Assembly (NCBI GenBank): GCA_964016885.1
Contig: OZ024741.1
Location: 144,150,001-144,214,000, forward strand
Reading direction: 5' to 3'
DNA length: 64,000 nucleotides
DNA from: Eledone cirrhosa
Lineage: Eukaryota
Shown here piece by piece: positions 3,001 to 61,100 of the stretch. The translations under genes and the position numbers were made by a program. The stretch's first letter is position 1. Each line of letters opens with the position of its first letter. The notes below the pieces were generated by a model. The model was given only the letters and a program-made list of their open reading frames with translations. It did not search any database and was not told the DNA's origin.

Positions 3001-3184
3001 CACGGAAGTCTCCCCCCATATTGGGGAATTTTCCTTTGTTTTTTTTTTTCATTTCCTTTGTTATTGTTTTTTATTTACACGCAAAAATGCCCATTTGTAC
3101 CGTTCTGTACCGTCCTGTGCTGTCCTCAACGTTATACTTTATGTCAACCCTTGTGGTTAATAAAGAAAGCATTATTATTATTAT
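1..3184 (+). mobile_element. Tx1/L1-clade LINE, family A copy 1 (decayed ORF2 + 3'UTR, cut by window start)
   Basis: Frameshifted ORF pieces carry APE motifs (GDWN, YTDH), KSPGLDG, RT (DQSKAFDRV, QGCP), and C-terminal CPRC..ETVLHALVHC. Stop at 2922-2924, AATAAA at 3159, then (ATT)n 3171-3184. Confidence 0.93.
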
Positions 3185-3315
3185 CGATACTTGTGTGACT
3201 TGTACTATTTCCAAGATGGCATTGAATCAATTCCAGAAAGAATGGTAAATTTCTCTTACTTCTTTTCAGAAACAGAATATTCCCAATATGCCGGAGGTGT
3301 CAGTCGTAGATTTAT

Positions 3316-3520
3316 ATGCTTGTTGTATTTGTTGTTGTGGGTGTTGTTGGTGTTGTTGTTGTTGGTAGCGTTGCTGTTGTTATTGGTGTTGCCGCAGCTG
3401 CTGTTATTGGTTTTGCCATCACTGTTGTTGGTGATGTAGTAGTAGTAATAGTAGTAGTTGCTGAGCTTGGAGTTATTTTTCTACTGCAGCTGTACTTGAT
3501 TGTTAACACTGTTATTGTTG
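3316..3520. repeat. (GTT)/(GTA) low-complexity tract
   Basis: Imperfect trinucleotide repeats; overlapping ORFs are poly-V/L/T artefacts. Confidence 0.85.
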
Positions 3521-3539
3521 TCATTTGTGCTCTGTGGAC

Positions 3540-3890
3540 GTGCACGGTCAAATGGTTAAGGAGTTCGCTTGACGAACATTAAGCGATATGTTCGATCCCA
3601 CTGCGTGACATCATGGGCAAGTGTCATTACCACAACCTCGTGTCGGCCTAAGTCTTGTGAGTTAACCTTGGTCGATAGAAACTAATTGAAAGCCAATCTG
3701 ATGGACTGTATCTGTAATTCAAAAGTCCAGCCTTTTCATACACTGTATGAAGCTGAATCTCCCGGAGCATTACATTAAGTGTACATGTATCTGAAGAATG
3801 CTCAGCCACGTTTACGTCAATTTCATGAGCTGGCTGTTCCAGCCATCGAACAACTGGATCACTCACCGTCGAAACTGACGGAGGTACATT
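3540..3890 (+). mobile_element. tRNA-headed SINE, family S1
   Basis: A/B-box-like head (atggttaagg...gttcgatccc). Body cccactgcgtg...ggcaagtgtc...gaaact and 3' module ...gtcgaaactgacggag are shared with copies at 22781 and 39090. Confidence 0.7.
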
Positions 3891-11775: not shown

Positions 11776-11799
11776 GTTGGTGGTAAAGAGAAAAGGCAC

Positions 11800-13442
11800 T
11801 TACCTCTCTGCGTCCCGGGAAACGGGCCGCTCAATTTCCATGCTGGTTGGGGATGGGTTGTTGGGTGGGGTTGTGGTTTGTGGAAGTGAAGGGGCATCGG
11901 TGTGTTGTGGGGTTGGGGTGTTTGTCGTTGAGTGGGTGTCTGGGTGAGGTGGGGGGGTGAAATTTTTTAGGAGGACGCGGTTGATTGGTTTGGCGCAGGG
12001 GGGGCCCACGTCCTCCGTGAAATTTATTTTCAGTGTTTTGTACAAGTGCATTGGGACTTTTATCATTTTCAAATGAGGTAGTCCCACAGCAGTTATAAAG
12101 TTTGGCCCTTCGGTTTGGACCGAAGGGTTTGCTGAAATTGTTTTCCGTAATTCTTTGTTGTCTGTGTTCATGTATGTGTATTGTAATGTCTTTTTTTGTG
12201 TAGCAGTTAGTGTTGTGTGACAGGGAGGGGTGGTTTGTGTGTAGTTTGTGTTCTCTTGGGGGGGATTAAAGTTAACATGTGTGTCTGTGGTGCGTCTCCT
12301 CTTCTTTCTTTTTACTTGTTGGAAGGGATCTTTTTCGTCTTGCGACGAAAGAGGTTCGTCTTCCTTGTTGGGTGGGAGGGGTATGTTTTCTGGTAGTGTT
12401 TGCGGTGTGCGTGTTTTTGTATTTGTTTTGGGTGGGGAGGGATTGGGTGGGACAGTATTCTGTGTTATTTTTTCACGTGTTTGTTGTTGTTGTTGTTGTG
12501 GTGGTGGTGGTGGGGTTGTTGGTTTTTGTTGTTGTTGTGGTTGTTTTTGTTGTTGTAGTTGGGGTGGTGTTGGTGTTGGTAGCAGTGTTTTTTTCTGTGT
12601 GAGCTGGGGACAGGCAGCCCTCAGGTGACCTCTATTGCCACAGAGGTAACAGGAGGGACGCCTACCCTCCACAATAATGTTGAGGTGGGTACGGTCATCC
12701 AGCATGACGCGCTCAGGGATTTGGGCGATGCGTTCTGGCCTTATTTGGGTCAGAACTTCGATGCTCGTTCCACTGAACGCGTCGCCGGATGCCTTCCCTA
12801 TTGAGATGAGGTTGTCCTCGTCTAAATTGAGGAAACCGGTTAGTAACCACCAGTAGTTTATGTTTGGGGTGATGGTGGTTATCCATATCCTCTGGGTTTT
12901 TTTACCCATGTAGGTAGGGAAGAAGGTGTAGTGTGTGGACCGAATTGGCGACACAGAGTATTTTTTTGCCGCCAATTCGTCTTTCATCAATATGGATAAA
13001 CTCCCATAGAGTTTATCCTTTTGTATGAAAGTGATGTCTCTCATCGCGTCTTTCAAGACTAACTGAGTTTCCGCTTGAGATGGTTGCGCTGGTTTCTTTG
13101 TTTTATTTAAAATTGTTCGGAATACGACAGTTCGTAATTCCGTCTGTCTTTTTAGCTCCGGAGGTGAATGTATAGAAAACGATCCGTTTTCGCCAAAAGA
13201 CACATATTTCTTGGCTTTTTCCAGCATTTCTTTTGCTTTTGAAATATCTTCCAGCACATAAGCGACTGATAATTTAGCCGTTTGTGCAAAAGATATTTTG
13301 TTTTCGTTTTGGATATTAGTATTGTTTTGTTTCTCGTCGTTTGAGTTGTTTTCATCTTTGTTGTTGTTGTTGTCTTTCTCGTTTCGTGTGTGGATACTTG
13401 TGACGTTTGTGTTGTTGTTGTTTTTGTTGTCTTTATTGTTGC

Positions 13443-13473
<31 letters not shown>

Positions 13474-13650
13474 GTTTTCAAATTCTTGTGTAGTTGTGGC
13501 TACATCTAGTGGTCGGTCAACAGGTGAAGACAATTCTTCCTCTCTCTGACCTCTGCCTTTGGCATCTGCTGCTGTGACAGTGGCAGGGGGAAGCTGTGAG
13601 TATGACTTCCCCTTTCCTTCTTTGATTGATGGTGAAGATGATTCAGCCAT
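11800..13650 (-). CDS. ORF1p: gag-like RNA-binding protein with CCHC zinc knuckle
   Basis: First ATG at 13650 (MAESSSP); CYLCGNRGHLRAAC knuckle; poly-N and poly-Q/P tracts; lies directly upstream of ORF2. Confidence 0.88.
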
Positions 13651-13875
13651 TTTTCTCAAAATAGGGTTTTTCGAAGTTTTTCGAAAGATAAAATGTTCAC
13701 AATACTATTTCGCCCAAAGGCGCAGAATATTTTGAGAGACCGACCAGATCAAAATTTGACCTGGCAGTCCCTCTACAAAATGATACAAAAATGAAAGTTT
13801 ACAGTTTACAATTTCCGTATGAATTTAAACAAAAACTTACCGAGCGAGCTCAGCACATGTGTCCATCGTGTTGAC

Positions 13876-22780: not shown

Positions 22781-23045
22781 GGGCGCAGCATAGCCAAATA
22801 GTTAAGAAGTTTCCTTTGCAATCATTAGATCCTGGTTGTGATTCCACTGCGTAGCATCCCGCGAAAGTGTCATTTGCCATAGTCTTGGATCGACTAAAGC
22901 TTTGTAAATAAAATTGGGAAAACGGAAACTGTTAAGAAACCCGTCGGATAGACTGTCTGTAATTGAAAGAATTCATGAGCAGGTTATTCTGGTTATCGAA
23001 CAACTAGAACACTCATCACCCAAACCGATTGAGGTTCATTCTATG

Positions 23046-23073
<28 letters not shown>
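22781..23073 (+). mobile_element. SINE family S1 (internally deleted) with (TATG)n tail
   Basis: Homology to 3540-3890 and 39090-39448. Confidence 0.65.
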
Positions 23074-23074
<1 letters not shown>

Positions 23075-23077
<3 letters not shown>

Positions 23078-25377
23078 ATCACGTGTTAGGCGGAGTCTTT
23101 CTCAGATGAAAGATCAGTGGTGGAGTGAGAAGGCTGGTGAGATACAAACTGCGTCTGATTCCAATAACACAAAGCTGTTGTACTGTCTCTTGCGTGAGGT
23201 TTATGGACCGTCTTCTTCTCTGGTGACACCGCTTCGCAGCAAGGATGGCAAAGAACTTCTTCGTGACTCACAAGGAATTCTACGAAGGTGGCGAGAGCAC
23301 TTTGATGATCTTTTGAATCAGCCGTCTGTCGTCAGTGAAAATTTCCTCAATCTCATTCCAGAAAGTCCTGTGAAAATAGCTCTCGCAGAACCTCCGACGC
23401 TTGTGGAAGTTGCAGTGGCTATTTCGAAGCTGAACAGTGGAAAATCTCCAGGTATGGATGGCATACATGCTGAGCTCCTACAATATGGTGGTGAGAGACT
23501 CCTGCAACATCTTCACTCTTTGTTTGGCAGGATATGGGCTAATGAATCCGTACCTGAGGACTGGAGAGATTCAGTAATGATGGTCTTGTACAAGGGAAAG
23601 GGTAACAGGAACGATTGTGGGAACTACAGAGGTATATCATTGCTTTCTGTCGTAGGGAAAGTTTTATGTAGGGTGCTTCTGGACCGTCTGCTGACACACA
23701 TTGCAGATTATGTTCTTCCTGAAAGTCAATCTGGTTTTCGTGCTGGACGCGGCACTACTGATATGATCTTCTCAGCTAGACAGCTCCAGGAGAAGTGCAT
23801 GGAACAAGGCTTGGATCTGTATCATGTTTTTGTCGATCTGACAAAAGCTTTCGATACTGTTAACAGAGATGCATTATGGAAGGTTCTCCAGAAACTTGGT
23901 TGCCCTGATAAGTTCCTTGCTTTAGTTAGGTCTTTCCATGACGACATGAAGGCTTGGGTTAATGTCGGGGGTAGCATGTCGGAGCCTATCTCGGTAAAAA
24001 ATGGAGTGAAACAGGGGGATATTCCAGCACCGACCCTGTTTGCCATATACTTTGCAATGGTTTTCTGTATTGCATTCAGGAATTGCGAGCATGGTGTTTA
24101 CATCCGATATCGAACCTCAGGCAGCATATTTAACATCAGGCGCTTTGCTGCGAAGACAAAAGTATTTACATCAATCATAAGAGACCTCTTGTATGCAGAT
24201 GATTGCGATCTTGTAGTGCACACAGAGAGTGATATGCAGCACATTTTGAATGCATTTTCTGACGCTTGCACTGCCCTAGGATTGACTGTCAGTCTCAAGA
24301 AAACCGTCGTCATGTACCAACCTGCCACTGGTAAGCAGTACACTGAACCAAACATCTATGTGTATGGCAAACGACTTGGAGTGGCTGATCAGTTTGGATA
24401 CCTGGGAAGCACTGTCAATCGATACAGCAACCTTGACAGTGAAATCTCACTTAGGATTAGGAAAGCAAGTGATGCTTTCGGAAAGCTAGAAAGGCAACTC
24501 TGGGGTCGGCGAGACATATGCAGGAGGACAAAGGTAAAGGTGTACAGGGCATGTGTGCTCTCTTGTCTTCTTTATGCCTACGAGACCTGGGTCACATATC
24601 GACACCACCTTAAGCAATTGGAGCGTTTCCATCAGATGTGTCTCAGACGGATTCATGGCGTTCACTGGAGGGACCACATCAGTGATGTCGAGATTTTGGA
24701 AAGCTCTATGTGTGACAGTATAGAAGCTCTTGTGCTTAAGCAACGACTCCGTTGGAGTGGTCACCTTGCCAGGATGAAGGATTCTAGAATATCAAAACAG
24801 CTCTTTTATGGAGAGTTGGTTAAAGGAAAACGACCGCCACATAAACCAAAAAAGAGGTATAAGGATTCCTTGAAAGCATCTCTGAAAGACGCTAACATCT
24901 CTGCTGATACATGGGAGAATTGCTGCTGATCGTAATAAATGGAGAAAGACTGTATATGAGGGTAAAGTTGCCTTTGAGGCATCTCGAATAGCATACGAGA
25001 AAGTAAAGCGGGATGTGAGGAAGGGCATTGCTGTTGCACTTCCAGACGGCGTGGGTCCTCCTATGGTGCTGACATGCAGCGTATGTGCGAGACTCTGCCT
25101 AAGCAAAGCTGGACTCGAAAGTCATCTTCGCAGTCATAAAGTAAGACCAGTGGTTGACTACCAGGCTGCTGTTGGAGATGCTACTCATCATGCTTGCCAA
25201 ACATGTGGTAGAGAATGTAAATCAGCAGGAGGGCTCAAGCGACATGCAAAAGTACACGAACTCCAACCACAGCCGACTATTCCCAGTAAATGTTTTGGTT
25301 GCCGACTCTGTGCAAGACATTTTAGATCATTGGCTGGGCTAAAAAGCCACATTCGATCGCAGCGCTGTTAGTTGCTA

Positions 25378-25380
<3 letters not shown>
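23075..25380 (+). mobile_element. 5'-truncated RTE-clade (BovB-like) LINE: RT + three C-terminal C2H2 fingers, one frameshift near 24920
   Basis: KSPGMDGI, NYRGISLL, ESQSGFR, FVDLTKAFDTV, GVKQG, LLYADD, YLGS, RLRWSGH. The frame continues (AADRNKWR...) into CSVC..HLRSH, CQTC..HAKVH, CRLC..HIRSQ; stop 25371, then (TG)n. Confidence 0.93.
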
Positions 25381-25431
<51 letters not shown>

Positions 25432-25486
25432 AGATATGCTTATGTGTGTGCGTGTGTGTGTATATGTATATTATTATTGTTGTTTT

Positions 25487-27106
25487 CGTGTCAGCATATG
25501 CGGACGATGTCACCGTAGTGGTGTCGAACGCCAAACACATCGAGGCGATCGGCACTACACTAAGAGAATACGAAGCGGTGACAGGAGCAATGATCAACCA
25601 GGAAAAGTCAGTGGGCCTGCAGCTCGGCACCTGGAGAGGCAGGTCCATGCCGTCCAACAGCGTCGTCGGACGCTGGACGGACGGACCGGTTAAATTGCTA
25701 GGGGTCTGGTTCGGTCCGGACCTCCAGACGGACAAAAACTGGGACGAGGTGACGAGCAGGGTGGCTTCTCTCACCCAGAAATGGGCGGAGAGGAAGCTAT
25801 CCCTGATAGGTCGAGCGGAGGTGGCTAACGCGTACATCGCGTCTGTCATCTGCTACCGCCTGACCGTCGTACCTTGTCCTAAGCCTCGCCTGACTGCGCT
25901 GGAGCGTTTGCTCTTTCGCTTTTTGTGGAAGGGACGCGCTCCGATGGTCAGGCGGTCCATCTGTTGTCAACACCGGCTACGTGGAGGGCTGGGAATGCTG
26001 TGGCTGATGATGCGCAGGCACGCGCTCAGGCTACGACATCTCCACCTCTTCCTCGACGGTGATCAGGTGTGGTCGCCGTTTGCTAGACACGTATTTCCCC
26101 AGCTCGTTTCCTTGACGGAGCTGCAGTCCTGGGTCAAGCGAAGACCGAGAGGGAGTGCTTGGAGACTGGAATGTCTTCAGGCGCTCACAGCCCTCGACCA
26201 ATCGGGCAATGTGATCGGTGGAAACTCCACCTCGGCGTTCTATAGAGGATTAGTGGAGGGGAAGAGCGACGACGTACTTGGAGAAACTCTAGGCGTCGAC
26301 GAAAATCAACTAGCCAATCTCTTCGGAAGAACTTTCGGGCCAGGGCCTATGGACAACTTCCAGAAATCTCTGGCCTGGCAGTGCTACCGGGGAGCTTTGC
26401 CAGTTCGGGATAAACTCTACAGGCATGGAGGTGCCGTCAGCCGGGCATGTCCGAGATTCGCACAGGGCGACGAAACCGTTCTGCACGCACTCGCCCAGTG
26501 TCCGAGCATTGCTGACTTGTGGGTTTATGTCGAACACCTGCTGTCGCGTGTAGGACGGATCCGGCTATCAGCTGGGTCCATCGTGAGGAATGCCCCGCCC
26601 TCTTCCTTTAGCCTGGAAGGGCAGGCAGTTTTTATCTGTCTGGTGGCCATGGCGAAAGAGATAGTATGGTGGACACGTTTGAAAGGGCTGAAGACGAGCA
26701 CTTACCTCTTCAGTGATGCCCTGATTAACTTTTTCAAATTCCATTTGAAAAGGAAAATCAGGGTAGAGAGGGAAGTGCTCTCTTCCCAGCATTTTGTTGA
26801 AAGATGGGTGAGAGAAGCAAGTATGGCCCGAATGAATGGGCCTTCTCTCAGTATGTGTCTGTAAATTAAAGGTGGAAAACTGGGAGAGGGCACTTGCCCT
26901 GGTGGTCAGGGTCACTGTGGTCTTTTAATGGGCTTTCTTCATAAATGTCCCTCGGAAGTCTCCCCCCTATTGGGGAATTGTTCTTTGTTATTTTATTACA
27001 TCCTGTTTTTTTTTACACACAGAAATGCCCATTTGTACTGTCCTGTATTGTCCTGTACTGTCCTTAATGTCTACTTTATGTAAACCCTTGTGGTTAATAA
27101 AGAAAA

Positions 27107-27152: not shown

Positions 27153-30100
27153 GGCGACATACGTAGGAAATCGTATTATCGTGAGCTACACAAAGGTTTG
27201 TTGTTTTCCTTTGTTTCAAATTGCCAGTTATGGAAAATTTTTGTTGTTAAGTGTTTATAAGTTCACCTATATTGCTTTCTGAAAAGGACACTCAATAATA
27301 TTGGGGCCTCGAGCCCAAAATTTAAACTTTTATTTATCAAACAAAATATTTCTTTGAAAAAAAAACATGGACGACAAATCTCCTGTTTCTAGCAGACTGG
27401 CATCCACCCACCACCACCCCCATTGTGAGCCTTGCCACGGTTGCCAACACTGAAAATGTAATTAACGGCAGTCTCAATTATTTGAATTTGCCGGATACAG
27501 ACGTGGATTTCCCGCCATTACCAATAGGTGCAGGTGTTAAAGCCGCCACCCACACCACCACAATGTCAAAATGAACAACCAACACCACTGATACCACCAC
27601 CACCACAGCGACAACAGAAACAAAAAATAAATTATTATCTCGTGACATCGAAATAGATTCAGCCAGAATCGATTCTTCCACGCCGAACACCACTGACACC
27701 ACCACCACCACAACTGAAACTAAAAATAACTGTTTCTACTTTTGGCACAAGACCAGCAATTATCCAGTGCATTACTGGTATTTTATTTTATCGACCCCCT
27801 AAGGATGAATGGCAAAGTTAACCTCGGCGGGATTTGAACTCATAATGGCAAGGGCCGTAACTCTATGCGTCAAAGCATGGCATCTGACCCTCTACCGATA
27901 CTGCCAATCCACTGAAACTAAAAATAACAATAACAAAAAAAATAACAATAACAACAACAGCAACAACAACAACAATGAGAATAACAACAACAAAATCAAC
28001 ACCAGCGCAAAACAAAATGTGTCGTTTTGCCAAAGCAGCCAAGAAAAGCGAAACAATCGAAGTAAGCCAGGAGGAATTGAATGAAGCCAAGCGAATGGTA
28101 AAAAAAAAGATGGGTACAGGGTCAGCCTCACCCCCCATCTAATAAAATGGAGCATCGGCGCTTATGCACCGTGTCATATCGGACGATAAACAAAATCACG
28201 CCGAGTGGAACGGGCATCCGAGTCCCAGATTCAAAAAGCTTTGGGACATGTGTGGGCGAAAAAACCCCACATCAGACATGGGCAGAAATATGGAACCGTG
28301 GACGTGTTCTTTGGAACCCCACAAGAAGCCAGAGAGCACTCCATGGCCCCATTAAGAAGTGACGAGTTCACACTCGTCCCAGGCTATTGTGGTCAGAGAC
28401 TCGTGAAGATCAGGGTGACCCACGTTCCACCGGTCATCAAAATTCCCTGGCTAATAGCTGCTGTCCTCGCCGACATCGAGGCCAACACTAAAATAATTGA
28501 AGTAACAAAAGAAAAGCAGGAGAACTGGTCCGGATCTGGGATGGAGCTCCTGATACAAGCGGAGGAAATTCCAAAAAACATTGAGGAAAATCAATGACGG
28601 CAGCCACCTCACCGTAATCGTTGAGGGTAGAAGGCCTAGGTGTGTCGTTTGTGGCGAAGGAACCCACCTAAAGGCTTTCTGCCCTCAGGTTAAAAAGTTG
28701 AGGCCACCTCTCCTACCCACCCCAGTGACTCAACCATCAAAACCAGCAGCAGAAGTGGCAGCAACAACTGTAGCAGCAACAACCCCAGCAACTGTAGCAG
28801 CAACAGTAGCAAAACCAACACCACCCCCACCCATCGCGCCAGAATTAGCACCAGCGCCTCCACCATCCACCACGCCACAACCAATACCAACGCCTGTGGA
28901 GGATTTTCCACTCCTTGATCTATCGCAACTGGAGACAGATTGTGAAGACGACGAGGAGTGGAAACCAGTATCAGGAAAAAGAAAAAAAAGAACCCCCAAA
29001 AGAAAAGATTCCCTTCCTTCGCCCTCCAAAAACAAAATGCAGGGTGAAGCAAATAAGCAAACAAACAAAAAAGTTAAGACAGCTATGCCACGACCCACAC
29101 CAGCATCACCAGCCCCATCACCACAAACATCACCATTATTAACCATTATTAACTCCAACACCACTATCACCAACAAGCGAAACAGAAACAAACCCACAAC
29201 AAACGCAAACAAAACAAAGCAATCAAAACGATACACATTACACAGCATTAAATTTGAACAACAACCAATTATTACACTACATCCAACACAACACCAGCAT
29301 CACAGACAAAGACTACACAGCACCCCCAAAATTTACAACACCTCCACACATACAAATTACTCGCATCACACAGAAAACGTACACGACACTAAAATTAAAA
29401 TTCCCCAAGGACATCGGAGACTTCCGACAAACACTCTCCAGGAGGATTTATAAGGACATCCTTCCAGAGGAGGCCACAAGCAGTGAGACGGATGGAAAAA
29501 CCATTCTTCCTCCACAAGAAGTGAGGTAAGTGGTCTTTCCCATCTTTTTCCACTCCTTTTCAACATGACCTCACTCAGAATAGGAAGCATAAATGCGCGT
29601 GGCCTGGGGTCATCATGGAAGCAGGACCACCTGCTCAACGACCTCAGGTCACTAAACATAGATGTGGTGGCCATCAGCGAGACCAGAATCTCCGAAGCAC
29701 GAGCCTTCGCACCGATCTTCGGCGGCTACGATGTGTACGCATCCCCCAACCGTCCTGGATCGGGGGGAGAGTTGCTGTGCTTTTTCGGAGAGGTTTGGAT
29801 CTCGCCATACGGGTTATCTTCCTGGACCCAGAAGGTAAGATGGTGGTGCTGGACGTGACCAACGGAGACGGGCAAGCTTTCAGGCTAGTGGCCGTCTATG
29901 CCACGACAGGAGCAGGGCGGCCTGATTTCTTCCGGCGTCTGTAGACCTTTCTTGGAACGTCCCGCTCTTTAGTGCTAGTGGATGACTGGAACGGGATCTT
30001 AGATGCAAGCTGGGTTTGTGTGGGATTAGTGGATAGAGGAGGAGGGTGTAAAAGCCTCGCAAATCTGCTCAGACGGTTTCAACTGTCTGACAGGTACTGG

Positions 30101-39448: not shown

Positions 39449-39730
39449 AGATAAACACCAGGTTTTGGCCCCAAACCTCAACCAACTCCTTGGATAGTCT
39501 CATAAGGATCGATATTGATCACTTTGGGGACTCTTGCTTTCAGTGAACCAGTCCATCTAGTTAAAAGAAATCACTGATGAGTGAGTCGCTATAAGGATAC
39601 TGGAGGTACGTGTTCTGCTGTTGGTGTTCCTCAGAGCTACGTATTACCAAATATACTATACATACATTCATGTATACATCGCTATTTCAGAGCACCAATC
39701 CTAATTTTTTATTTTTATACTATACATACA

Positions 39731-39785
<55 letters not shown>

Positions 39786-39794
39786 CCAAGATTT

Positions 39795-39990
39795 CTTGGT
39801 GAGGAGGGTGACTTTGGACATCCTGCAGGACTAAAAACAAAACCTGTCAAAGGGCAAAGGAGCTCTTAAGAGTCAATGGCCATCCAAAATCACCGGGGGA
39901 GATGACCCCTTAGCCTTTGTCAAGGCAGAATTCTAGGAGAAGGAAAACTCTGATATAACACCTGCAACCCTGATGGTATCCAATGATGTT
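39795..39990 (+). mobile_element. RTE-type 5'UTR fragment
   Basis: cttggtgaggagggtga..catcctg..aaaaacaaa.cctg.caaagggca matches 17609-17697; followed by ctaggagaaggaaaactctga. Confidence 0.6.
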
Positions 39991-40347
39991 GACTCGTTCT
40001 TCTTTTTGGTAAATATCATCTTGGTTAAGAGAGTGGGACTGGCTTTGTGCAGTGCCTTTGCTCACTATAAAAGCTTCACGGCACAGGCATTGCTTTATAT
40101 CTGGAGATCTCTCTGCATTTGTTGTCACATGGTACCATGGGCCCAGCACTATGTGTCAATAGTTGTCACAAATGTAGTGTTTGTACCAGAGTTTTCAAGT
40201 CGCTGGCTGGACTAAAAAGTCGCACTCGTTCAGCGCATCGGTAGGGGTTCTCCTACATGGATATAAAGTAGTGGCCGTACTCGAAAACGAGTTGGCAGCC
40301 ACCATATATATATATACATATATATATATAATGTATGAATGTATAGA

Positions 40348-40404
<57 letters not shown>

Positions 40405-40408
<4 letters not shown>

Positions 40409-40860
40409 GATTGATGCTCTGAGATAGTGATGTATACATGAATGTATATATAATATATTTGGCAATATACCGTATGTTTAATTAAAAATATTTTGAAGTC
40501 CTTGCGCTATCATTTTAAAGAAGTGACTATGTCACTTCTTTTTTCGGCAAAATGTTTTTAATTAAACATACGGTATATTGCCAAATATACTATACATACA
40601 TTCATGTATACATCGCTATTTCAGAGCTCATATCCTAATTTTTAATTTTTGCTGGACCGGCAATCGCTTTGTATAATCAGTTCCTGATTAATACTGGAAT
40701 TCTATAAGAATGGAGCCTCTATATTTTCGGCAGAGGAGGGGAGTACATTGCTCTGAGGAACACCAACACCAACACCAATAGTGTGAAACAGAATCTGTCA
40801 GCTTCTCTCCCTTCGTTTGCCGAAAAAAGAAGTGACATAGTCACTACTTTAAAATGATAT
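40405..40860. mobile_element. Hammerhead-bearing non-coding repeat (family H1, ~325-nt unit): plus-strand unit with an inverted, permuted segment
   Basis: 40405-40550 is the reverse complement of the unit's end+start junction. Partial copy at 39600-39715; decayed relative at 47030-47400. Confidence 0.7.
40750..40802 (+). ncRNA. Type I hammerhead ribozyme (H1)
   Basis: gct-CTGAGGA-acac[17nt]gtgt-GAAA-cagaatctg-TC-agc: all three stems pair. Confidence 0.8.
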
Positions 40861-40864
40861 ACAT

Positions 40865-40866
40865 TC

Positions 40867-40925
<59 letters not shown>

Positions 40926-40949
40926 GATATAATATATATATGTAATATG

Positions 40950-40991
<42 letters not shown>

Positions 40992-41015
40992 GATATAATA
41001 TATATATGTAATATG

Positions 41016-41057
<42 letters not shown>

Positions 41058-41081
41058 GATATAATATATATATGTAATATG

Positions 41082-41138
<57 letters not shown>

Positions 41139-42004: not shown

Positions 42005-43463
42005 AGGGAGAGTTAACGGGTTAGAAAATGGAGACAGTGAATGATAGAAATTGTCAATTAACTTGTTTACAAATAAATTGACCAATGAAGTAATCTAAGC
42101 ATCTAAACGTCTTTCATTAATTTCTTTTAATTTACGACTACTTTCTTTCAAAACAATCACCACTAATTTAGTACCACCATCCCCACCACCACTTTATCTC
42201 CCTTAGCCACATATACACTCCACACACTACAGAAAACGATCATCTCAAATTCCTCTAATGCTAAGTTTTGTTAATTTGTTAATTTGACAAATGATATTAA
42301 TCAATAAGGAAAGAAGCAAAATATGTCTTCATGGCTTTTATCTTTTCAAGGCTATTTGTAGCACATGTGAGCCTAATCAACAACAAAAACAACAACTACA
42401 TATATTGGAATAACAATATAGCATTAGATTTAATCAATATATTTGGATTAATCCTCAAGAATGCTGGGTCATGTAGAAATGTTTAGGATGGTATTGGACG
42501 TTAAATTCCAGAAGAAAATTGTATTAAATGACTTCTACCAGAGATTGAAACCGTTTCACTGTCTCTCAGATGGTTGAGAGATTACCTCTTCTACAACGTG
42601 TGAAATGTGTCACTAATGTTGAATTAAGTTGAATTAATTAGAAAATGTCTTTTCAACGAAACCGAAGAATTTACTCCACATGAAATAATTACCAATTATT
42701 AAATTCCATTATGACGCCAACATTATAAAAGAATAAATAAAAAAAAACATAACAACACCTCCTCCCACAAAATGCCCCAACAAAATCACAAACAACAAAA
42801 ACGTTAATTTGTTGTTACGTCATGTTGACGTCAACCAATGAGATTGTTAGATGCTGGATACAATGGTTAATGACTTTATATAGATCAACGAGAAAAATAA
42901 CTACAGATATTGAATGGAAAAACCCGTACAAACAAATAAAATAAACAAAAATACAACAATAAAACACTGCAACCATTATCAGAGAAAATGCATTCCTTAG
43001 AGGCATTGATTATTAAGAAAAGAAATATTAAAAAAAATAATTATCTGAAATAGAAAATTGTTATTAAAGTTTTAATAATTAATGTTTAGTGACGTCAGAA
43101 AATAGATTTTATTTTTAATTAACTCAAGTTGAAATTAATAAATGGTAACAGATTTCATTTTGCTTCAATTTTAAATGTAACTTTATTAATTTTATTAATG
43201 CTGTCAATAACGGTATTCTTTTATTCTTTTATTTGTTCACATATTTCAGTCATTAGCCTGCGTCCATGTAGGGGCACCGCCTTGATTTAGTCGATCATAT
43301 CAACCCCAGTACTTATATTTTTGAAGTCTGGTACTTATTTTATTGATCTATTTTTGTTGAACTACTAAGTTTCGGTTATAAAAACATACATAGGTAAACA
43401 TAAATACACAAGTGCACGCAACAACAATACACATACATATGTATGTATATTTATAGGAAAAGT

Positions 43464-43556
43464 TTCAGGACCCCGACGGCTGAGCTCCGGCCATTTCGAC
43501 AGCTAGATCGGATCTATCTGTCGAAACGGCCGGAGCTCAGCCGTCGGGGTCCTGAA
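43464..43556. repeat. ~93-bp near-perfect palindrome (family P)
   Basis: ttcaggaccccgacggctgagctccggcc...ggccggagctcagccgtcggggtcctgaa. Confidence 0.92.
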
Positions 43557-43648
43557 TATTTTCATATTACCCACTCTACTACACCAAGTATCGAGTACTC
43601 TGGTGCGTTATGGTCTACCTGGTATCTTACCACACCGTTCTTTGTTAT

Positions 43649-46688: not shown

Positions 46689-47429
46689 TACTTTGGGAGG
46701 GTCATGCTGCCAATAAAAACACACGCACCTGTTTGTTTTCACTTCAATTTATTATGTTTCCGGTTGGTTGGTTCGTTCGATAACGGGAAGATTAGTTATT
46801 TGGTCACACATTCTGTGACCTTCTCAGCGACTAGGTTTTTATTTTGTGTCTCTCCTTTGTTCTGTCCTACACCACCTTGTTTTTGTGTGTAGTGTGTTCT
46901 GTCCTACACATCCTTAAACCTCTCTTGTGTGTGAAAAAAATGTCAGAGAGTACGGAAATAGAACCGTGGAAATGGCCAGTCACAGCTTGCATATATATAT
47001 ATATATATATATGAATGTACGTATTGTATATTTAATAATATACTGTATGTTTATTAAAAAAAACATTTTGTAGGCCTTTCGCTATGAATTTAAGGTAGTG
47101 ACCATAGTCACATACCAAGCTTCAGCAAAAACAAAGGGGAACAACAGACGCGTTTCTTGCTGTTTAGCGGTTATCAAGGTTATATACCACTCTCTGTTTT
47201 TACTGTGAGCTGTAGAAGCTGGATTCCTATAGAATACCAATTATGTTTATGAGCTGTCGATAAAATAAAGTACCAGTAATGTACTGGTAATTGCTGGCCT
47301 TGTGCCAAAAATAGAAACAATTATGTTTATGGGCTGTTTAAACTCATTAACATACAGAGCTGTTGCCGGCCCAGCAACAATTAGAAATATATATAATGGA
47401 ATTTTTGTTTATACTATATATTAAACTGA

Positions 47430-47703: not shown

Positions 47704-48612
47704 GGTGCATTTTCCTTCCCTTTTCTTTTAATGGTTGTATTCATTAGATTATGTACATGCTGGGTTCCCACCTTGATTTTGTCGATCATATTGACCTCAG
47801 TACTTATTTCCTTACCTATCTGCAACCTATTTTATCGATCTCTTTCGAGCCACTACATTATAGTATATAGACAAAACGTAAACGTAAACACGGACACGGA
47901 TACATATACAAACACAGACACACACTGACCCCCTCCCACACCTACACACTCACACACACACACCTACACACTCACACACACACACACTCACACAAGCACA
48001 AGGAAACGGACACACAAATGTGCCTACACTCTCCAAAAACTATTTGTTTTGATGAAAATATTAGGATTAAACGGTCAACATATAATGTTTTCTCATTAAA
48101 GTTTTTTTTCAATAGAATTTTATTTATGCAGGTATATAAAGTCAATTTAAAATCCAGCATAGCAACAAAGAGTCTATTGAAAATGTTCTCTGTTGCTTAG
48201 AAATGTTATATTTACCTGTGCTATAAATAATATGTAATATTTACTGTTCCCAAACCACAGAATTATGTTAGCATCAGACAGTTTTGAAGCTTATTATCTT
48301 TCATTTATGTCGAGTTGGCCGTATTTCAGTTGAGCTTCCTGCAAACAACTTTCACTATGGAGTTATGACTTCGAAATTCTTTTAGAGCAAATGTACATTC
48401 TTTGATAACTTTGATAACTTTGAGAGGTTTCGGCCAGTGTTTGGTCCAGGCCATGTTTAACTTAATAGCGTAATATGGAGAATATAGATTACCTCCTCCT
48501 CCTCCTCCTCCTCCTCATCATCATCATCATCATCGTCCTTCTCCTCGTCCTCACCACCATGACTATCATCATGATCACCCCCCCCACCCATCACGACCAT
48601 CATCATCATCAC

Positions 48613-51600
48613 CATGGGAGAAGAAATGTATATATTGGAGAGCTGGGGGAAGAGGTGTATATATTGTAGAGCTGGGGGAAGAGGTGTATATATTGTAGAG
48701 CTGGGGGAAGAGGTGTATATATTGGAGAGCTGGGGGAAGGGATGTATATATTGGAGAGCTGGGGGGAAGAGGTGTATATATTGGAGAGCTGGGGGAAGGG
48801 ATGTATATATTGTAGAGCTGGGGGAAGGGATGTATATATTGTAGAGATGGGAAAAGAGGTGTATATATTGGAGAGCTGGGGGAAGAGGTGTATATATTGT
48901 AGAGCTGGGGGAAGGGATGTATATATTGGAGAGCTGGGGGAAGAGGTGTATATATTGTAGAGCTGGGGGAAGGGATGTATATATTGGAGAGCTGGGGGAA
49001 GAGGTGTATATATTGTAGAGCTGGGGGAAGAGGTGTATATATTGGAGAGCTGGGGGAAGGATGTATATATTGTAGAGCTGGGGGAAGAGGTGTATATATT
49101 GTAGAGCTGGGAGAAGAGGTGTATATATTGTAGAGCTGGGAGAAGGATGTATATATTGTAGAGATGGGAAAAGAGGTGTATATATTGTAGAGCTGGGAGA
49201 AGGGATGTATATATTGTAGAGCTGGGAGAAGGATGTATATATTGTAGAGCTGGGGGAAGAGGTGTATATATTGTAGAGCTGGGGGAATAGGTGTATATAT
49301 TGTAGAGCTGGGAGAAGGATGTATATATTGTAGAGCTGGGGGAAGGGATGTATATATTGTAGAGCTGGGGGAAGAGGTGTATATATTGGAGAGCTGGGGG
49401 AAGAGGTGTATATATTGTAGAGCTGGGAGAAGAGGTGTATATATTGGAGAGCTGGGAGAAGAGGTGTATATATTGTAGAGCTGGGAGAAGAGGTGTATAT
49501 ATTGGAGAGCTGGGAGAAGAGGTGTATATATTGTAGAGCTGGGAGAAGAGGTGTATATATTGGAGAGCTGGGAGAAGAGGTGTATATATTGCAGAGCTAG
49601 GGGAAGGGATGTATATATTGTAGAGCTGGGAGAAGAGGTGTATATATTGGAGAGCTGGGAGAAGAGGTGTATATATTGTAGAGCTGGGGGAAGGGATGTA
49701 TATATTGTAGAGCTGGGAGAAGAGGTGTATATATTGGAGAGCTGGGAGAAGAGGTGTATATATTGTAGAGCTGGGAGAAGAGGTGTATATATTGGAGAGC
49801 TGGGGGAAGGGATGTATATATTGTAGAGGTGGGAGAAGAGGTGTATATATTGGAGAGCTGGGAGAAGGATGTATATATTGTAGAGCTGGGGGAAGAGGTG
49901 TATATATTGTAGAGCTGGGAGAAGAGATGTATATATTGTAGAGCTGAGAGAAGGGATGTATATATTGTAGAGATGGGAGAAGAGGTGTATATATTGCAAA
50001 GCTGGGAGAAGAGATGTATATATTGTAGAGATGGGAGAAGAGATGTATATATTGTAGAGCTGAGAGAAGGGATGTATATATTGTAGAGATGGGAGAAGAG
50101 GTGTATATATTGTAGAGATGGGAGAAGGGTGTGTATATATTGTAGAGATGGGAGAAGAGGTGTATATATTGTAGAGCTGGGAGAAGAGGTGTATATATTG
50201 TAGAGCTGGGAGAAGGATGTATATATTGTAGAGCTGAGGGAAGAGGTGTATATATTGTAGAGCTGGGAGAAGAGGTGTATATATTGGAGAGCTGGGGGAA
50301 GGGACGTATATATTGTAGAGCTGGGAGAAGAGGTGTATATATTGTAGAGCTGGGAGAAGAGGTGTATATATTGGAGAGCTGGGGGAAGGGATGTATATAT
50401 TGTAGAGCTGGGAGAAGAGGTGTATATATTGGAGAGCTGGGGGAAGGGATGTATATATTGTAGAGCTGGGAGAAGAGGTGTATATATTGGAGAGCTGGGG
50501 GAAGGGATGTATATATTGTAGAGCTGGGAGAAGAGGTGTATATATTGTAGAGCTGGGAGAAGAGGTGTATATATTGTAGAGCTGGGAGAAGAGGTGTATA
50601 TATTGGAGAGCTGGGAGAAGAGGTGTATATATTGTAGAGCTGGGAGAAGAGGTGTATATATTGTAGAGATGGGAGAAGAGGTGTATATATTGTAGAGCTG
50701 GGGGAAGGGATGTATATATTGTAGAGCTGGGGGAAGAGGTGTATATATTGTAGAGCTGGGGGAAGAGGTGTATATATTGTAGAGCTGGGAGAAGAGGTGT
50801 ATATATTGGAGAGCTGGGAGAAGAGGTGTATATATTGTAGAGCTGGGAGAAGAGGTGTATATATTGGAGAGCTGGGAGAAGAGGTGTATATATTGTAGAG
50901 CTGGGGGAAGGGATGTATATATTGTAGAGCTGGGAGAAGAGGTGTATATATTGTAGAGCTGGGGGAAGGGATGTATATATTGTAGAGCTGGGAGAAGGAT
51001 ATATATATTGGAGAGCTGGGAGAAGAGGTGTATATATTGTAGAGCTGGGAGAAGAGGTGTATGTATTGGAGAGCTGGGAGAAGAGGTGTATATATTGTAG
51101 AGCTGGGAGAAGAGGTGTATATATTGGAGAGCTGGGGGAAGGGATGTATATATTGTAGAGCTGGGAGAAGAGGTGTATATATTGGAGAGCTGGGGGAAGG
51201 GACGTATATATTGTAGAGCTGGGAGAAGAGGTGTATATATTGTAGAGCTGGGAGAAGAGGTGTATATATTGGAGAGCTGGGGGAAGGGATGTATATATTG
51301 TAGAGCTGGGAGAAGAGGTGTATATATTGGAGAGCTGGGAGAAGGGATGTATATATTGTAGAGCTGGGAGAAGAGGTGTATATATTGGAGAGCTGGGGGA
51401 AGGGATGTATATATTGTAGAGCTGGGAGAAGAGGTGTATATATTGTAGAGCTGGGAGAAGAGGTGTATATATTGGAGAGCTGGGAGAAGAGGTGTATATA
51501 TTGTAGAGCTGGGAGAAGAGGTGTATATATTGGAGAGCTGGGGGAAGGGATGTATATATTGTAGAGCTGGGAGAAGAGGTGTATATATTGGAGAGCTGGG

Positions 51601-53279
51601 GGAAGGGATGTATATATTGTAGAGCTGGGAGAAGGATGTATATATTGTAGAGCTGGGAGAAGGATGTATATATTGTAGAGCTGGGGGAAGAGGTGTATAT
51701 ATTGTAGAGCTGGGAGAAGAGATGTATATATTGTAGAGCTGAGAGAAGGGATGTATATATTGTAGAGATGGGAGAAGAGGTGTATATATTGTAGAGCTGG
51801 GAGAAGAGATGTATATATTGTAGAGCTGGGAGAAGAGATGTATATATTGTAGAGCTGAGAGAAGGGATGTATATATTGTAGAGATGGGAGAAGAGGTGTA
51901 TATATTGTAGAGATAGGAGAAGGGTGTGTATATATTGTAGAGATGGGAGAAGAGGTGTATATATTGTAGAGCTGGAAGAAGGATGTATATATTGTAGAGC
52001 TGAGGGAAGAGGTGTATATATTGTAGAGCTGGGAGAAGAGGTGTATATATTGGAGAGCTGGGGGAAGGGACGTATATATTGTAGAGCTGGGAGAAGAGGT
52101 GTATATATTGTAGAGCTGGGAGAAGAGGTGTATATATTGGAGAGCTGGGGGAAGAGATGTATATATTGTAGAGCTGGGAGAAGAGGTGTATATATTGGAG
52201 AGCTGGGGGAAGGGATGTATATATTGTAGAGCTGGGAGAAGAGGTGTATATATTGGAGAGCTGGGGGAAGGGATGTATATATTGTAGAGCTGGGAGAAGA
52301 GGTGTATATATTGTAGAGCTGGGAGAAGAGGTGTATATATTGTAGAGCTGGGGAGAAGAGGTGTATATATTGGAGAGCTGGGAGAAGAGGTGTATATATT
52401 GTAGAGCTGGGAGAAGAGGTGTATATATTGGAGAGCTGGGAGAAGAGGTGTATATATTGTAGAGCTGGGGGAAGGGATGTATATATTGTAGAGCTGGGAG
52501 AAGAGGTGTATATATTGTAGAGCTGGGGGAAGGGATGTATATATTGTAGAGCTGGGAGAAGGATATATATATTGGAGAGCTGGGAGAAGAGGTGTATATA
52601 TTGTAGAGCTGGGAGAAGAGGTGTATGTATTGGAGAGCTGGGAGAAGAGGTGTATATATTGTAGAGCTGGGAGAAGAGGTGTATATATTGGAGAGCTGGG
52701 GGAAGGGATGTATATATTGTAGAGCTGGGAGAAGAGGTGTATATATTGGAGAGCTGGGGGAAGGGACGTATATATTGTAGAGCTGGGAGAAGAGGTGTAT
52801 ATATTGTAGAGCTGGGAGAAGAGGTGTATATATTGGAGAGCTGGGGGAAGGGATGTATATATTGTAGAGCTGGGAGAAGAGGTGTATATATTGGAGAGCT
52901 GGGAGAAGGGATGTATATATTGTAGAGCTGGGAGAAGAGGTGTATATATTGGAGAGCTGGGGGAAGGGATGTATATATTGTAGAGCTGGGAGAAGAGGTG
53001 TATATATTGTAGAGCTGGGAGAAGAGGTGTATATATTGTAGAGCTGGGAGAAGAGGTGTATATATTGTAGAGCTGGGAGAAGAGGTGTATATATTGTAGA
53101 GCTGGGAGAAGAGGTGTATATATTGGAGAGCTGGGAGAAGAGGTGTATATATTGTAGAGCTGGGAGAAGAGGTGTATATATTGGAGAGCTGGGGGAAGGG
53201 ATGTATATATTGTAGAGCTGGGAGAAGAGGTTATATATATTGGAGAGCTGCTAGAAGAGGGTGTATATATTACAAAGCT
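48613..53279. repeat. 29-bp tandem satellite (~160 units), consensus GAGCTGGGAGAAGAGGTGTATATATTGTA
   Basis: Direct inspection; variant units recur at a 1564-bp offset. Confidence 0.97.
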
Positions 53280-53782
53280 AATCTATATTGTTGAATACCC
53301 AACGGCCTGTCTAGTGTCTGATCGATCAAAGCAGATCTGTGATTGTATCAAAGTCCTTTCACAAAACACAAAAGCAGTTAAATAATCCTCATCCTTCAAA
53401 GAAACAAATAATTATAATGAAGTAATCGTGTTTAAAGAGTTCTAGCTTTTAATCTATATAAAAGATACAAACGGAAATAACATTTTAAGGAGACAATTAA
53501 TAAAAGTTAAAAAACAACAACATAGAATCAAAAGCAAGCCATCCCATCTCAGACGTAGACACAACCCATTGAAGCAAGAGGAAATAACCCAATAGTTTTG
53601 ACTTCGAATAAAAATCACATTTAATTCTTGATAATCGTCACTTTATTTTTATATGTCCTGTAAACATATTTTAAGTATTAAAACATGCAAGCTTTTAAGC
53701 CTAATGATCTTTAAAATTTGGAAATGATGCATAGTCAAACAAGACTTTTATTGTACACGCGTATATGTAGGCACAAACACAG

Positions 53783-55523: not shown

Positions 55524-55625
55524 CGTGTTTGTGTGCATGTATAACTATGTATGTTTGTGTGCATCTATAACTATGTATATATATACATATATATAAGATC
55601 AAAAGATGGTTAAAAGAGTTCCATG

Positions 55626-55696
55626 TATTTTATTATGCGCATTTCAAAAACAAATATCATCATGCACTAACATTTGCGTTTTCGTCAGATAAAATA
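55626..55696 (-). ncRNA. Type I hammerhead ribozyme (H3, CTGACGA core)
   Basis: tattttat-CTGACGA-aaac..tttt-GAAA-tgcgca-TA-ataaaata. Confidence 0.82.
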
Positions 55697-55754
55697 TGTT
55701 GATTTAAAACTGCACTATTCACAAGTGTTTTTTAACCTTCATATCATGTCTCCC

Positions 55755-55825
55755 TATTTTATCTGATGAAAACGCAAATGTTATTGCATGATGATATTTG
55801 TTTTTGAAATGCGCATAATAAAATA
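55755..55825 (+). ncRNA. Type I hammerhead ribozyme (H3, CTGATGA core)
   Basis: 8-bp stem I, long stem II, palindromic stem III atgcgcat, UA cleavage site at 55816-55817. Confidence 0.85.
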
Positions 55826-55949
55826 CATGAAACTCTTTTAACCATCTTTTGATCTCATATATTATTTATACTCCAGTCCTATAAACTGTAGAGTGCTACT
55901 TATCCGATATCTGCATTGCTTTATTGTACTACAATAAAACTCACCTCCT

Positions 55950-56024
<75 letters not shown>

Positions 56025-57683: not shown

Positions 57684-57782
57684 GAAAAAGTTTGACCCCG
57701 ACGGCAGAGCTCAAGCCGTTACGACGGCTATTTCTGAAATAGCCGTCGAAACGGCTTGAGCTCTGCCGTCAGGGTCAAACTT

Positions 57783-57786
<4 letters not shown>
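57684..57786. repeat. ~103-bp near-perfect palindrome (family P)
   Basis: gaaaaagtttgaccccgacggcagagctcaagccg...cggcttgagctctgccgtcagggtcaaactttttc. Confidence 0.92.
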
Positions 57787-58509: not shown

Positions 58510-61100
58510 TGTTACCGTCTGCTAGTCAGGCGGTCATTTTTCTCAAGGAAAGTGATCAGTTTCTTTCTAATGATTCGCTCCATGACCTTACTGAGACTGA
58601 CCTATAGGTTTTGGCCTCCGCTCTGCTACCTCCTTTATGGATAGGGCATATTGTGCCTTCTTTCAGCTCCCCGGGTAGTCTACCGCTAGCCAACGAGCTT
58701 CTGAAGAGCGTCGTCAGTGGAGTTGCTAAGGCCTTTTACATGTTTTTAAGAGGACTGCTGGGAATCCATCAGGTTCAGCAGCTGAGTCTGTTCTAATTTC
58801 ACCTATGGCGTATACCACATCCTCCTCCGTTATGTCTATGTGGTTGATGGTCGCCATTTTTTCAAGGAGTGTTGTGACATCAAAGAAATTGTCTGGCTTT
58901 GTTATTTGCATGTGCCTCAGTGGACATGTGAACACACTTTTGTACTGTTCGTTCAGTATTTCACTTATCTCTTGGGGATTCTCGGTTAATGATCCGTCTT
59001 TATGGAAGAGTGGCCCAATCTTGCAGTTTACCGAGGCAGTCTCTTTTGCAAATTTAAAGAAGGCCTTACGGTTTGTTTTAATATTTTCTATGGCCCTGCT
59101 TTCTTTCTTTGCCCTCTCATTTTCATGGGAAAGTTTGAGTGCAATCTCGATGTCAAGTAGTGCACGTTTCAAATAGGATTCCTTCTTCATTTGTTTTTGT
59201 TTTCTTGCGCATTCAACTGGTTTGAGAGCTTAGTTCAACGTCTCATAAGGATTTTCCTATCTCTGGGACTAAGATTTTTGTGTCTGTTGGCCTTTTTCTC
59301 CAGGACAAACTTTTGGCATATAGTTTGTATCGTTGTCATGAAGTGTTGAAAATGTGTGTTGGTGTCTTGTGTGGCGATGTTGTCGGTCCATGTTTGCTTC
59401 CGGATTTCTCTCTTGATCTTTTTCCAGTTAGCCTCGTAGAAGTTAAGGCTGGATAAGGTCCCGGTGCTTCTTGATGGCTGTGTCTCTGCTGATTTTCTCG
59501 GACCACATATCATTAGTTCTACTAAGTTATGATCCGAGAAAATTGTTGGTGTCACCTTTACATTGTGGATGAGCACTGCATTGTTTGTAAAACAGATCTA
59601 GGACATTCTCGCCTCTTGTTGGGAGGAGTATTGCTTGTTCCATGAACAGCCTGTGTGTGAGGGCCAGCAGGGACTCCGTTTGTCTCTGTTCTAGTGATGT
59701 CATTCCAGGGAGGAGGCGGAGAAAGTTGAGACGCTGGTCGAGTTTGTCAAGGACCTCTTCTATCCTACTGAGGCTATTCTCAAATTTACCCTCATGACTG
59801 GGGGCATCAGGTGGCCGATATGTGACACATATTACTGTTTTTAGTTGCTTCATATGTTCTATCAGTGTGTCACAGACTGAGTTTGAATGTGTCAACAGTA
59901 CAATTGGTGTGACATCTTCACGGATATACATGAGTTCTCTCCTTCGTGTCCGAACGAAATACAGTACATTTTGGTATATGTATTTCCGCATCTGCTATAC
60001 TGCTTGTCGGGTGCGTTTCGGTTAGTGCCATGCATAATGCTTAATTACTTATGGCTAAGTTTCCCATATATATATATATATTGTATTTGGCTGAGAAATT
60101 AATTTCATTTCATTTTATTTTATTTGCATTGTGATCTAAGAAAATTTAGTATATTTGCCTTGAAGAAGTAATTATAAAAAAGAAAGGTGTATGTAATTTT
60201 TACATTGAAGCTGTAGAAATTACACCTATTTGCATTGAAGTGACAATTAATGGGAAATTTCCGCTGCTGATATTTTTGCCGATCTGACCTACTTAGAGGA
60301 AATTTAGCTTTTGTTTAGAGGTAATAAATAACAATTTTTAAAGGAATTTCTTCGTCTACTAATTTGACCGATACTTGACCGAAATGCCATGAGTAAAGTT
60401 AGTGATAAGGATAGTTGCTATGGGTGGAGGGATGGCTAATGTCATTGTTTTCTTTCTTTCCTGTTTGTTTCTGTCTTTGTTTCATCCCTTTTTTTGTGTT
60501 AGTTACACAAGATAGACGCATTCTTAAGAGACGGTCACTAATAGGTAGGTCTTGATTTTGTTAAATAAGTTTGCAAATCTGTTTGTGTAGTTGGTCTTAT
60601 TTTTACGAGTAGGTTTGTCTTTATATGATTTGCATTCGTGTGTGTATATTATACTGATTTGTATGTAAATAATTGTTTCTACTTTTGGCACAAGGCCAGC
60701 AATTACCCAGTGCATTACTGGTACTTTATTTTATCGACCCCATAAGGATGAAAGGCAAAGTTAACCTCGACGGGATTTGAACTCAGACCGTAAAGGGACG
60801 TAACTATGCTAGAAAGCATGGCGTCCAACCCTCTACCGATACTGTCAATTCACCGCAAATAATGATATTGAGGTTTATGCTTTTACGTCGCCTTTTGATA
60901 CTGTATTTCATTTTTTCATCTTGGATTCATTTCGCTTATTTCTTTAATGGCTTGGGTATTTTCTTCATTATTATTATTTTTTTAATGTAGTGTTGTAAAA
61001 CTAGACTTCCGGTGCGCAGCATTACGTAATCTAGGTGGATAGTTTGAGGGTTTAAAGTCGAGAGACAACGGGAGACGGGAGAACACGGCCTATTACGCAA
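58510..61100 (-). pseudogene. Decayed CR1/L2-group LINE (5' region, APE, start of RT; 3' part missing)
   Basis: YRPP, VLDL, SDHNL, AFFKFAK, ILNEQYKSVFT, AAEPDGFP, and CPIHKGGSRAEAKTYRSVS peptides across frameshifts. The 5' boundary is uncertain. Confidence 0.75.
60673..60856 (-). mobile_element. SINE S3 (same subfamily as 27731), possible aaataat TSD
   Basis: Close match to 27731-27910. Confidence 0.75.

Follow-up and report, generated by a model that had tools for sequence, protein, structure and literature searches.

The H1 repeat of Eledone cirrhosa, a non-coding unit of 315-324 nt that carries a hammerhead ribozyme motif, is probably a non-autonomous retrozyme that is copied into the genome by a reverse transcriptase (RT)/GIY-YIG protein of the Penelope-like element (PLE) type. 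Its insertions end at two fixed sites, and where two arms stand head-to-head one as a rule ends at each site. On our best reading, H1 is a non-LTR retrozyme that depends on a PLE enzyme acting in trans, which would prime twice on an RNA of more than unit length.

Anatomy of the H1 locus

The window, that is the whole 64,000-nt stretch of DNA that was analysed, corresponds to positions 144150001-144214000 of its source contig in a genome of 3.0 Gb. Unit positions (u) refer to the natural 315-nt monomer of locus L022, in which u1 corresponds to 40548 of the window and cleavage is predicted after u241. On this ruler the H1 locus is a head-to-head pair of arms flanked by (TA)n tracts; the inverted arm ends at u92 and the direct arm at u58. 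The inverted arm (40404-40551, minus strand) reads u258-315 and then u1-92, reaching the family's long end at 40404, with the tail present, against the (TA)n tract at 40349-40403; its last 34 nt (u59-92; 40404-40437, minus strand) are the stretch that separates the two fixed ends. The direct arm (40548-40868, plus strand) reads u1-302 from 40548 to 40858, jumps over ~61 nt and resumes with u49-58 (40859-40868), terminating at the short end, 40868, against a (TA)n-rich tract (40869-41135). The arms overlap by 4 nt of microhomology at the head-to-head breakpoint (40548-40551), and the locus follows the end rule described below. It holds one hammerhead only, tandem units being found in the family and not here.

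Followed from 40551 to 40404, the inverted arm aligns to positions 269-312 of the plus segment, continues through 12 extra nt and then aligns to positions 1-92. These 12 nt (40496-40507, minus strand) are u304-315, which are missing from the plus arm, and are ordinary unit sequence with no ligation junction. A first-pass annotation of this DNA had placed the start and the end of the unit at 40548 and 40858 and had read the inverted segment as joining that end to that start, the inversion revealing a circular junction. The continuity of end and start is indeed seen in the alignment, through the 12-nt linker and not directly; the two positions themselves are the inversion breakpoint (40548) and an internal jump from u302 to u49 (40858). 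Nor does the inversion reveal a circular junction, as H1 copies, in direct orientation, as a rule run on from u315 to u1, and in two other samples genomic RAD-seq reads contain the back-going joint 40854->40548 (5 and 3 reads). Since the end-to-start joint is present in direct orientation and in genomic DNA it is not diagnostic of an RNA circle, and since a ligation junction is expected at the cleavage site, 40799^40800, the linker is not a circle joint.

A truncated insertion, separate from the main locus, had been noticed near 39600-39715 as an inversion that breaks inside the ribozyme, and so it proved. Its inverted piece (39643->39618, minus strand; u198-223) is half a hammerhead, with the core and the 5' strand of helix II, and is joined head-to-head to a direct piece (39642-39735, plus strand) that reads u29-102 as far as 39715, jumps back to u39-58 and stops at the short end before a (TA)n tract (39736-39783). 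The jumps at 40858 and 39715 are explained by a template switch or a deletion. The spacer between this fragment and the main locus (39784-40296) holds broken frames that end in a CxxC...H...H motif, which we take to resemble the C-terminus of an RTE-type LINE, and a stretch similar to the spacer is found in L180.

The diverged relative near 47 kb had also been said to span the junction. It does align across the linker (score 106, with a maximum of 57 in 200 shuffles) and yet belongs to a separate sister family. This copy (47012-47388, minus strand) has a U3-A8 core at 47177-47171 and a short end at ~47012, and is interrupted by another repeat at ~47258-47317. Within 47238-47337, ~60-70 nt of that other repeat, which also occurs at 27721-27795 and 60669-60738, lie between 20-nt direct repeats resembling a target-site duplication. 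Genome-wide the sister family yielded 1510 candidates, the best 40 of which were scored; its monomer is 328 nt long (GC 0.33) with 228 identities to H1, its core reads UUGAUAA and its ends fall at 58 and 92.

Elsewhere in the window, near-perfect GC-rich palindromes of ~100-115 nt at 43453-43567 and 57687-57783 are similar to one another, and similar letters flank several loci. LINE-type ORFs with endonuclease and RT of 1153 aa, a zinc-knuckle ORF upstream, lie at 8338-13704 (minus strand) and 22908-26864 (plus strand), together with further RT fragments, and very long open frames with a GC skew of up to 0.85 at 48457-53282 are probably a simple tandem repeat.

A dispersed family with two fixed ends

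H1 is a dispersed family of thousands of copies scattered over many chromosomes. The plus segment used as genome query gave 1885 candidates and the inverted arm 2304, the best 40 being scored in each case; exact matches to a 35-nt hammerhead motif number 109 in the genome (control, 0) and those to a 17-nt tail motif 3242, the latter motif being common to the sister families. The natural monomer is 315 nt long with a GC content of 0.36, and no ORF of 120 aa was found inside the unit. Measured against the majority letter of each column, copies diverge by a mean of 4.5% and by no less than 1.3%, and no very young copy was seen. In our literature searches we found neither a published description of the family nor a published end rule for retrozymes; subscription papers and bioRxiv supplements, which may bear on the point, lay outside their scope.

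Several loci show further variation. The largest seen, L148 (C5:116402000-116411000, positions 2117-3770), has 2.3 and 3.2 units head-to-head with both ends long, and is a mosaic of unit variants common to both arms. In contig C440 (L006, L007, L009) one H1 copy appears three times at ~26.4-kb spacing, representing a large tandem duplication. Loci L238, L240, L241, L252, L254, L259 and L263 are subfamilies with the same tail module and a different hammerhead region, their hammerheads having CUGAUGA and U3-A8 cores and another palindromic loop 3. A two-core locus has relatives at 80-95% identity in contigs from sequencing runs, of unsure kind, of three other organisms, no piece spanning the whole stretch, and these relatives were left aside as evidence.

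We surveyed the ends of 147 loci, which after removal of 17 duplicates left 130 unique loci; 75 of these contain 77 head-to-head pairs, and there are 3 tail-to-tail joins. While the 5' ends are variable, the 3' ends are fixed at two sites 34 nt apart, 130-165 nt downstream of the hammerhead: a short end after TACATTCAT at u58, which alignment places at u63-66 since TA resembles the next letters, and a long end after CCTAAT at u92, extending up to u99. A TA run adjoins 117 of 134 short or long ends, a raw count given without a background rate. In 54 of the 58 pairs that could be classified one arm ended at the short and the other at the long site, three pairs being short-short and one long-long; in the other 19 of the 77, an arm ends elsewhere. 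The subset picked by the hammerhead core alone gave 29 mixed pairs out of 33. A second set, for which 40 loci were picked by the tail motif as they came along the chromosomes, a choice that favours the long end, contained 23 pairs, and all 12 that could be classified were mixed. The rule is less tight in the sister family (9/13 classifiable pairs mixed, p 0.13). In most pairs the arms overlap by a few bases at their junction. The rule of one long and one short end thus indicates that priming took place twice, separately, the products being joined at short microhomologies, and not that the template was switched, which speaks against template switching, proposed at first reading, as the main source of the inversions.

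The predicted hammerhead ribozyme

As the first-pass annotation had noted of the plus segment, with its CUGAGGA motif and GUC site, the direct arm carries a complete type I hammerhead (40728-40822, plus strand). It comprises the core CUGAGGA at 40753-40759, helix II (ACAC/GUGU), GAAA at 40785-40788, helix III, GUC at 40797-40799 with predicted cleavage at 40799^40800, and a long bulged helix I; within 39.5-47.5 kb it is the only match to CUGANGA followed by helix II and GAAA. Helix III is near-palindromic, and a 12-nt duplication in loop II (40768-40779) is private to this copy. At -32.1 kcal/mol (z -2.7) the fold of the segment 40725-40822 is matched in stability by 4 of 200 shuffles. None of the 99 matches (E<=1) that an Rfam scan of the window listed is a hammerhead, which we treat as a miss of the models.

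Among H1 copies that were not selected by their core, 55 of 69 laps keep all 12 core letters, and substitutions are rarer in the core (17/828) than outside it (525/11912; p 0.0007). In a set of 36 aligned copies picked from regex hits (22 H1 and 14 sister), 87% of the cells pair and 12 of the 25 pairs change on both sides, as compared to at most 60% pairing and 7 two-sided pairs in slid controls. The tertiary 3-8 pair is C3-G8 in 21 and U3-A8 in 13 of these 36 sequences from two families, and the covariation is mostly one between-family split with few independent events. U3-A8 is described as a PLE hammerhead variant (PMC4209133). The hammerhead is likely to be under selection in the source elements.

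Helix III has a calculated energy of -0.5 alone and of -10.6 as a self-complementary duplex, values that would fit cleavage as a dimer. The hammerhead is predicted to cut tandem transcripts to unit length, probably as a dimer. Two points speak against it: the hammerhead conformation lies above the free minimum of the monomer by 2.6 kcal/mol in the query copy and 5.5 kcal/mol in the copy of L005, and Li, Clavereau and Pollet (2026, bioRxiv 10.64898/2026.07.22.740005) saw no in vitro cleavage for eight of nine predicted Xenopus retrozymes.

The window holds further hammerhead motifs. Another head-to-head pair, 55594-55740 (minus strand) and 55755-55950 (plus strand), has minimal hammerheads with cores at 55688 (minus) and 55763 (plus) and a palindromic loop 3; its plus arm extends ~90 nt beyond the end of its minus arm, and its motif recurs in L196 and L257. 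Hammerhead-like motifs with palindromic loop 3 also stand at 57074 (plus strand), resembling one in L189, and at 55182 (minus strand).

A template probably longer than one unit

Of 60 unselected arms 36 cross the predicted cleavage site, one of them crossing two, and 90 of 197 arms are longer than one unit. Arms that run past the cleavage site or exceed one unit could not have been copied from a cleaved linear monomer. The cyclic template inferred at first reading therefore stands insofar as the template exceeds a unit; such a template could be a circle or an uncleaved tandem transcript, which we hold to be about equally probable.

The arms of an insertion share alleles, as would follow if a single template lineage gave rise to both. 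Minority alleles are common to opposite arms at 0.014 per nt and to successive laps at 0.0136, as compared to a position-matched null of 0.0038 with a maximum of about 0.0051-0.0056. For rare non-CpG alleles the values are 0.0031 for opposite arms and 0.0034 for laps versus 0.00029 between loci, a sharing that halves when two diverged loci are left out. The marker at u190 agrees in 25 of 27 pairs where 13.7 are expected and that at u33 in 42 of 54 where 27.2 are expected; three markers in the indel-prone u279-282 show no excess agreement between arms. Gene conversion between inverted arms, or the activity of one subfamily at a time, could give the same sharing. An apparently steeper stop at the second cleavage site (6/7 unselected arms) became 17/32 for all arms, with 14/46 and 5/10 in neighbouring windows, and was not used.

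Penelope-like elements as the probable partner

PLEs are described as preferring (TA)n for insertion and as leaving behind a copy that is inverted and 5'-truncated, together with a 30-40-bp tail that in most cases marks one end only (Craig et al. 2021, bioRxiv 10.1101/2021.04.23.441226). As reported for the anole PLE protein, a predicted dimer, both strands are nicked and extended at AT-rich DNA and reverse transcription starts at two internal RNA sites flanking the tail, hammerhead cleavage not being needed as uncleaved RNA was used in vitro (Frangieh et al. 2024, PMC11167929). The 34-nt offset between the H1 ends fits this picture of two start sites.

GIY-YIG matches are abundant in the genome (10596 candidates, the best 150 scored). 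Several of these domains stand at the C-terminus of RT ORFs, after a cysteine-rich linker and with minimal hammerheads downstream, and by the motif of that linker the ORFs appear Neptune-like. In an abundant PLE family (L179, L180, L184, L188, L190, L173) the ORF is followed downstream by a minimal hammerhead of the U3-A8 type. No H1-like terminal repeat was found in 50 GIY-YIG loci of the 10596 candidates, and tblastn of three PLE ORFs against 218 repeat loci detected a PLE piece near 3, none contiguous with the repeat. The H1 copy in L150, considered as a pLTR link, was rejected as it is an independent head-to-head insertion. The RT ORFs of the window that were compared with Pfam, 10 proteins, are of LINE type with no GIY-YIG, and no ORF with RT and GIY-YIG was found in the H1 element, which is therefore not an autonomous PLE.

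Discussion

We propose that a PLE protein would nick both strands of a (TA)n target and that the two nicks would serve as primers for reverse transcription from within the RNA, which would begin at site 92 from one nick and at site 58 from the other. Both cDNAs would extend upstream on an RNA of more than unit length, either a circle or an uncleaved multimer, stopping at variable points, and the two would then be joined head-to-head at short microhomologies.

The alternative that deserves most weight, although we consider it less probable than our own proposal, is that the template is a monomeric circular RNA and that the inversion arises by template switching in one round of reverse transcription. 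As for the circle, the 36 of 60 arms that pass the cleavage site do so without a seam, rare alleles are shared between successive laps at more than the rate between loci, as given above, and no long master array was seen, with one direct pair among 100 listed of the 109 exact cores and a longest arm of ~3.2 units. Coral, mussel and axolotl retrozymes are described as forming circles (PMC7229834), and PLE templates were proposed to be circles in 2014 (Cervera and de la Peña 2014, PMC4209133). Yet the end-to-start joint found in genomic DNA does not single out a circle, and the one-long-one-short rule needs two primings. Moreover, 19 of 60 unselected 5' ends fall at u242-271, within 30 nt after the cleavage site, where 5.7 are expected, as if they were free cleaved 5' ends, a cluster that stalling at helix I or microhomology would give equally; the distinct unit variants in both arms of L148 are better explained by a mixed multimer or by gene conversion than by a single circle, and the anole PLE is reported to use uncleaved RNA in vitro (PMC11167929).

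It is improbable that the copies are 5'-truncated pLTRs of an autonomous PLE, even though all the end features are PLE features and Xenopus retrozymes are described as homologous to pLTRs (Li et al. 2026), for the arms pass from unit to unit, up to 3.2 units, without an intervening ORF, none of the 218 loci has an arm continuing into PLE coding sequence, and the hammerhead is canonical and its helix I long, whereas those next to the PLE ORFs of this genome are minimal. Less credible still is a satellite-like or palindromic repeat that spread as DNA, by recombination, fold-back repair or assembly error, with the hammerhead a relic or a matter of chance. The region is AT-rich and microsatellite-rich, and no read or contig among the matches listed spans the exact breakpoint (40548-40551); but the copies are dispersed over many chromosomes, only their 5' ends vary, and compensatory pairs include the tertiary 3-8 pair. 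The end rule and the covariation largely refute such an origin. A fold-back mirror copy was rejected, as the inverted arm joins u304-315 to u1-92, a continuity lacking in the 3' part of the direct arm.

Returning to mobilisation in trans by a PLE enzyme, H1 shares with metazoan non-LTR retrozymes, as they are described in PMC7229834 and by Li et al. (2026), a unit within 150-450 nt, a GC content below 50% (36% here), the lack of an ORF, one type I hammerhead per unit with a palindromic helix III, the coexistence of PLEs and, in the family (the L138 pair 315 nt apart; L148), hammerhead units in head-to-tail order. Unlike those, H1 copies are mostly of 1-2 units, dispersed and head-to-head and not in long arrays, few have two complete tandem hammerheads, and the family is known here from DNA alone, no RNA run being listed among the sequencing runs that contain it, a result with no bearing on expression. 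The satellite 2 hammerhead repeats of newt and axolotl (PMC7229834), compared by description only, are similar in their unit of ~330 nt and in a helix III whose weakness and palindromy suit cleavage as a dimer; they differ in forming long tandem arrays. Like the EN+ PLEs treated in Craig et al. (2021), PMC11167929 and PMC4209133, H1 is 5'-truncated, bears an inverted copy at the 5' end and, at one end, a tail whose 34 nt fall in the 30-40-nt range, sits in AT-rich or (TA)n targets, and has 3' ends that lie within the RNA, downstream of the hammerhead; the U3-A8 core variant is likewise shared. It differs in having no RT or GIY-YIG ORF and a canonical, not a minimal, hammerhead, and an autonomous partner with linked sequence was not found. 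At the level of the family H1 displays every testable feature of a non-LTR retrozyme and, judging from its sequence, appears to behave like a PLE-mobilised insert.

The class of element has already been published, as have, each on its own, its tail, its inversion and the U3-A8 variant, and retrozymes were proposed to be non-autonomous PLE derivatives by Li et al. (2026). So far, in PMC7229834 and in Li et al. (2026) as we cite them, the link between retrozymes and PLEs has rested on co-occurrence and on homology to pLTRs, whereas H1 brings it from the insertion ends: those of a non-coding element bear the PLE signature, pair by a nearly strict rule and place the start sites to the nucleotide. 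H1 is thus a small substrate for an assay with purified PLE protein and offers a concrete prediction of where priming would start. It is conceivable, with about as much to be said for the idea as against it, that one enzyme dimer primes both nicked strands on the same template, each at a different fixed RNA site, giving exactly one tail per inversion, and that the retrozyme clade keeps a ~110-nt hairpin module surrounding the two sites near-fixed while the hammerhead drifts with compensation. If this is true, the ~110-nt hairpin module would be a portable signal for PLE recognition, and the question of circle or multimer would become approachable with an RNA of 320 nt.
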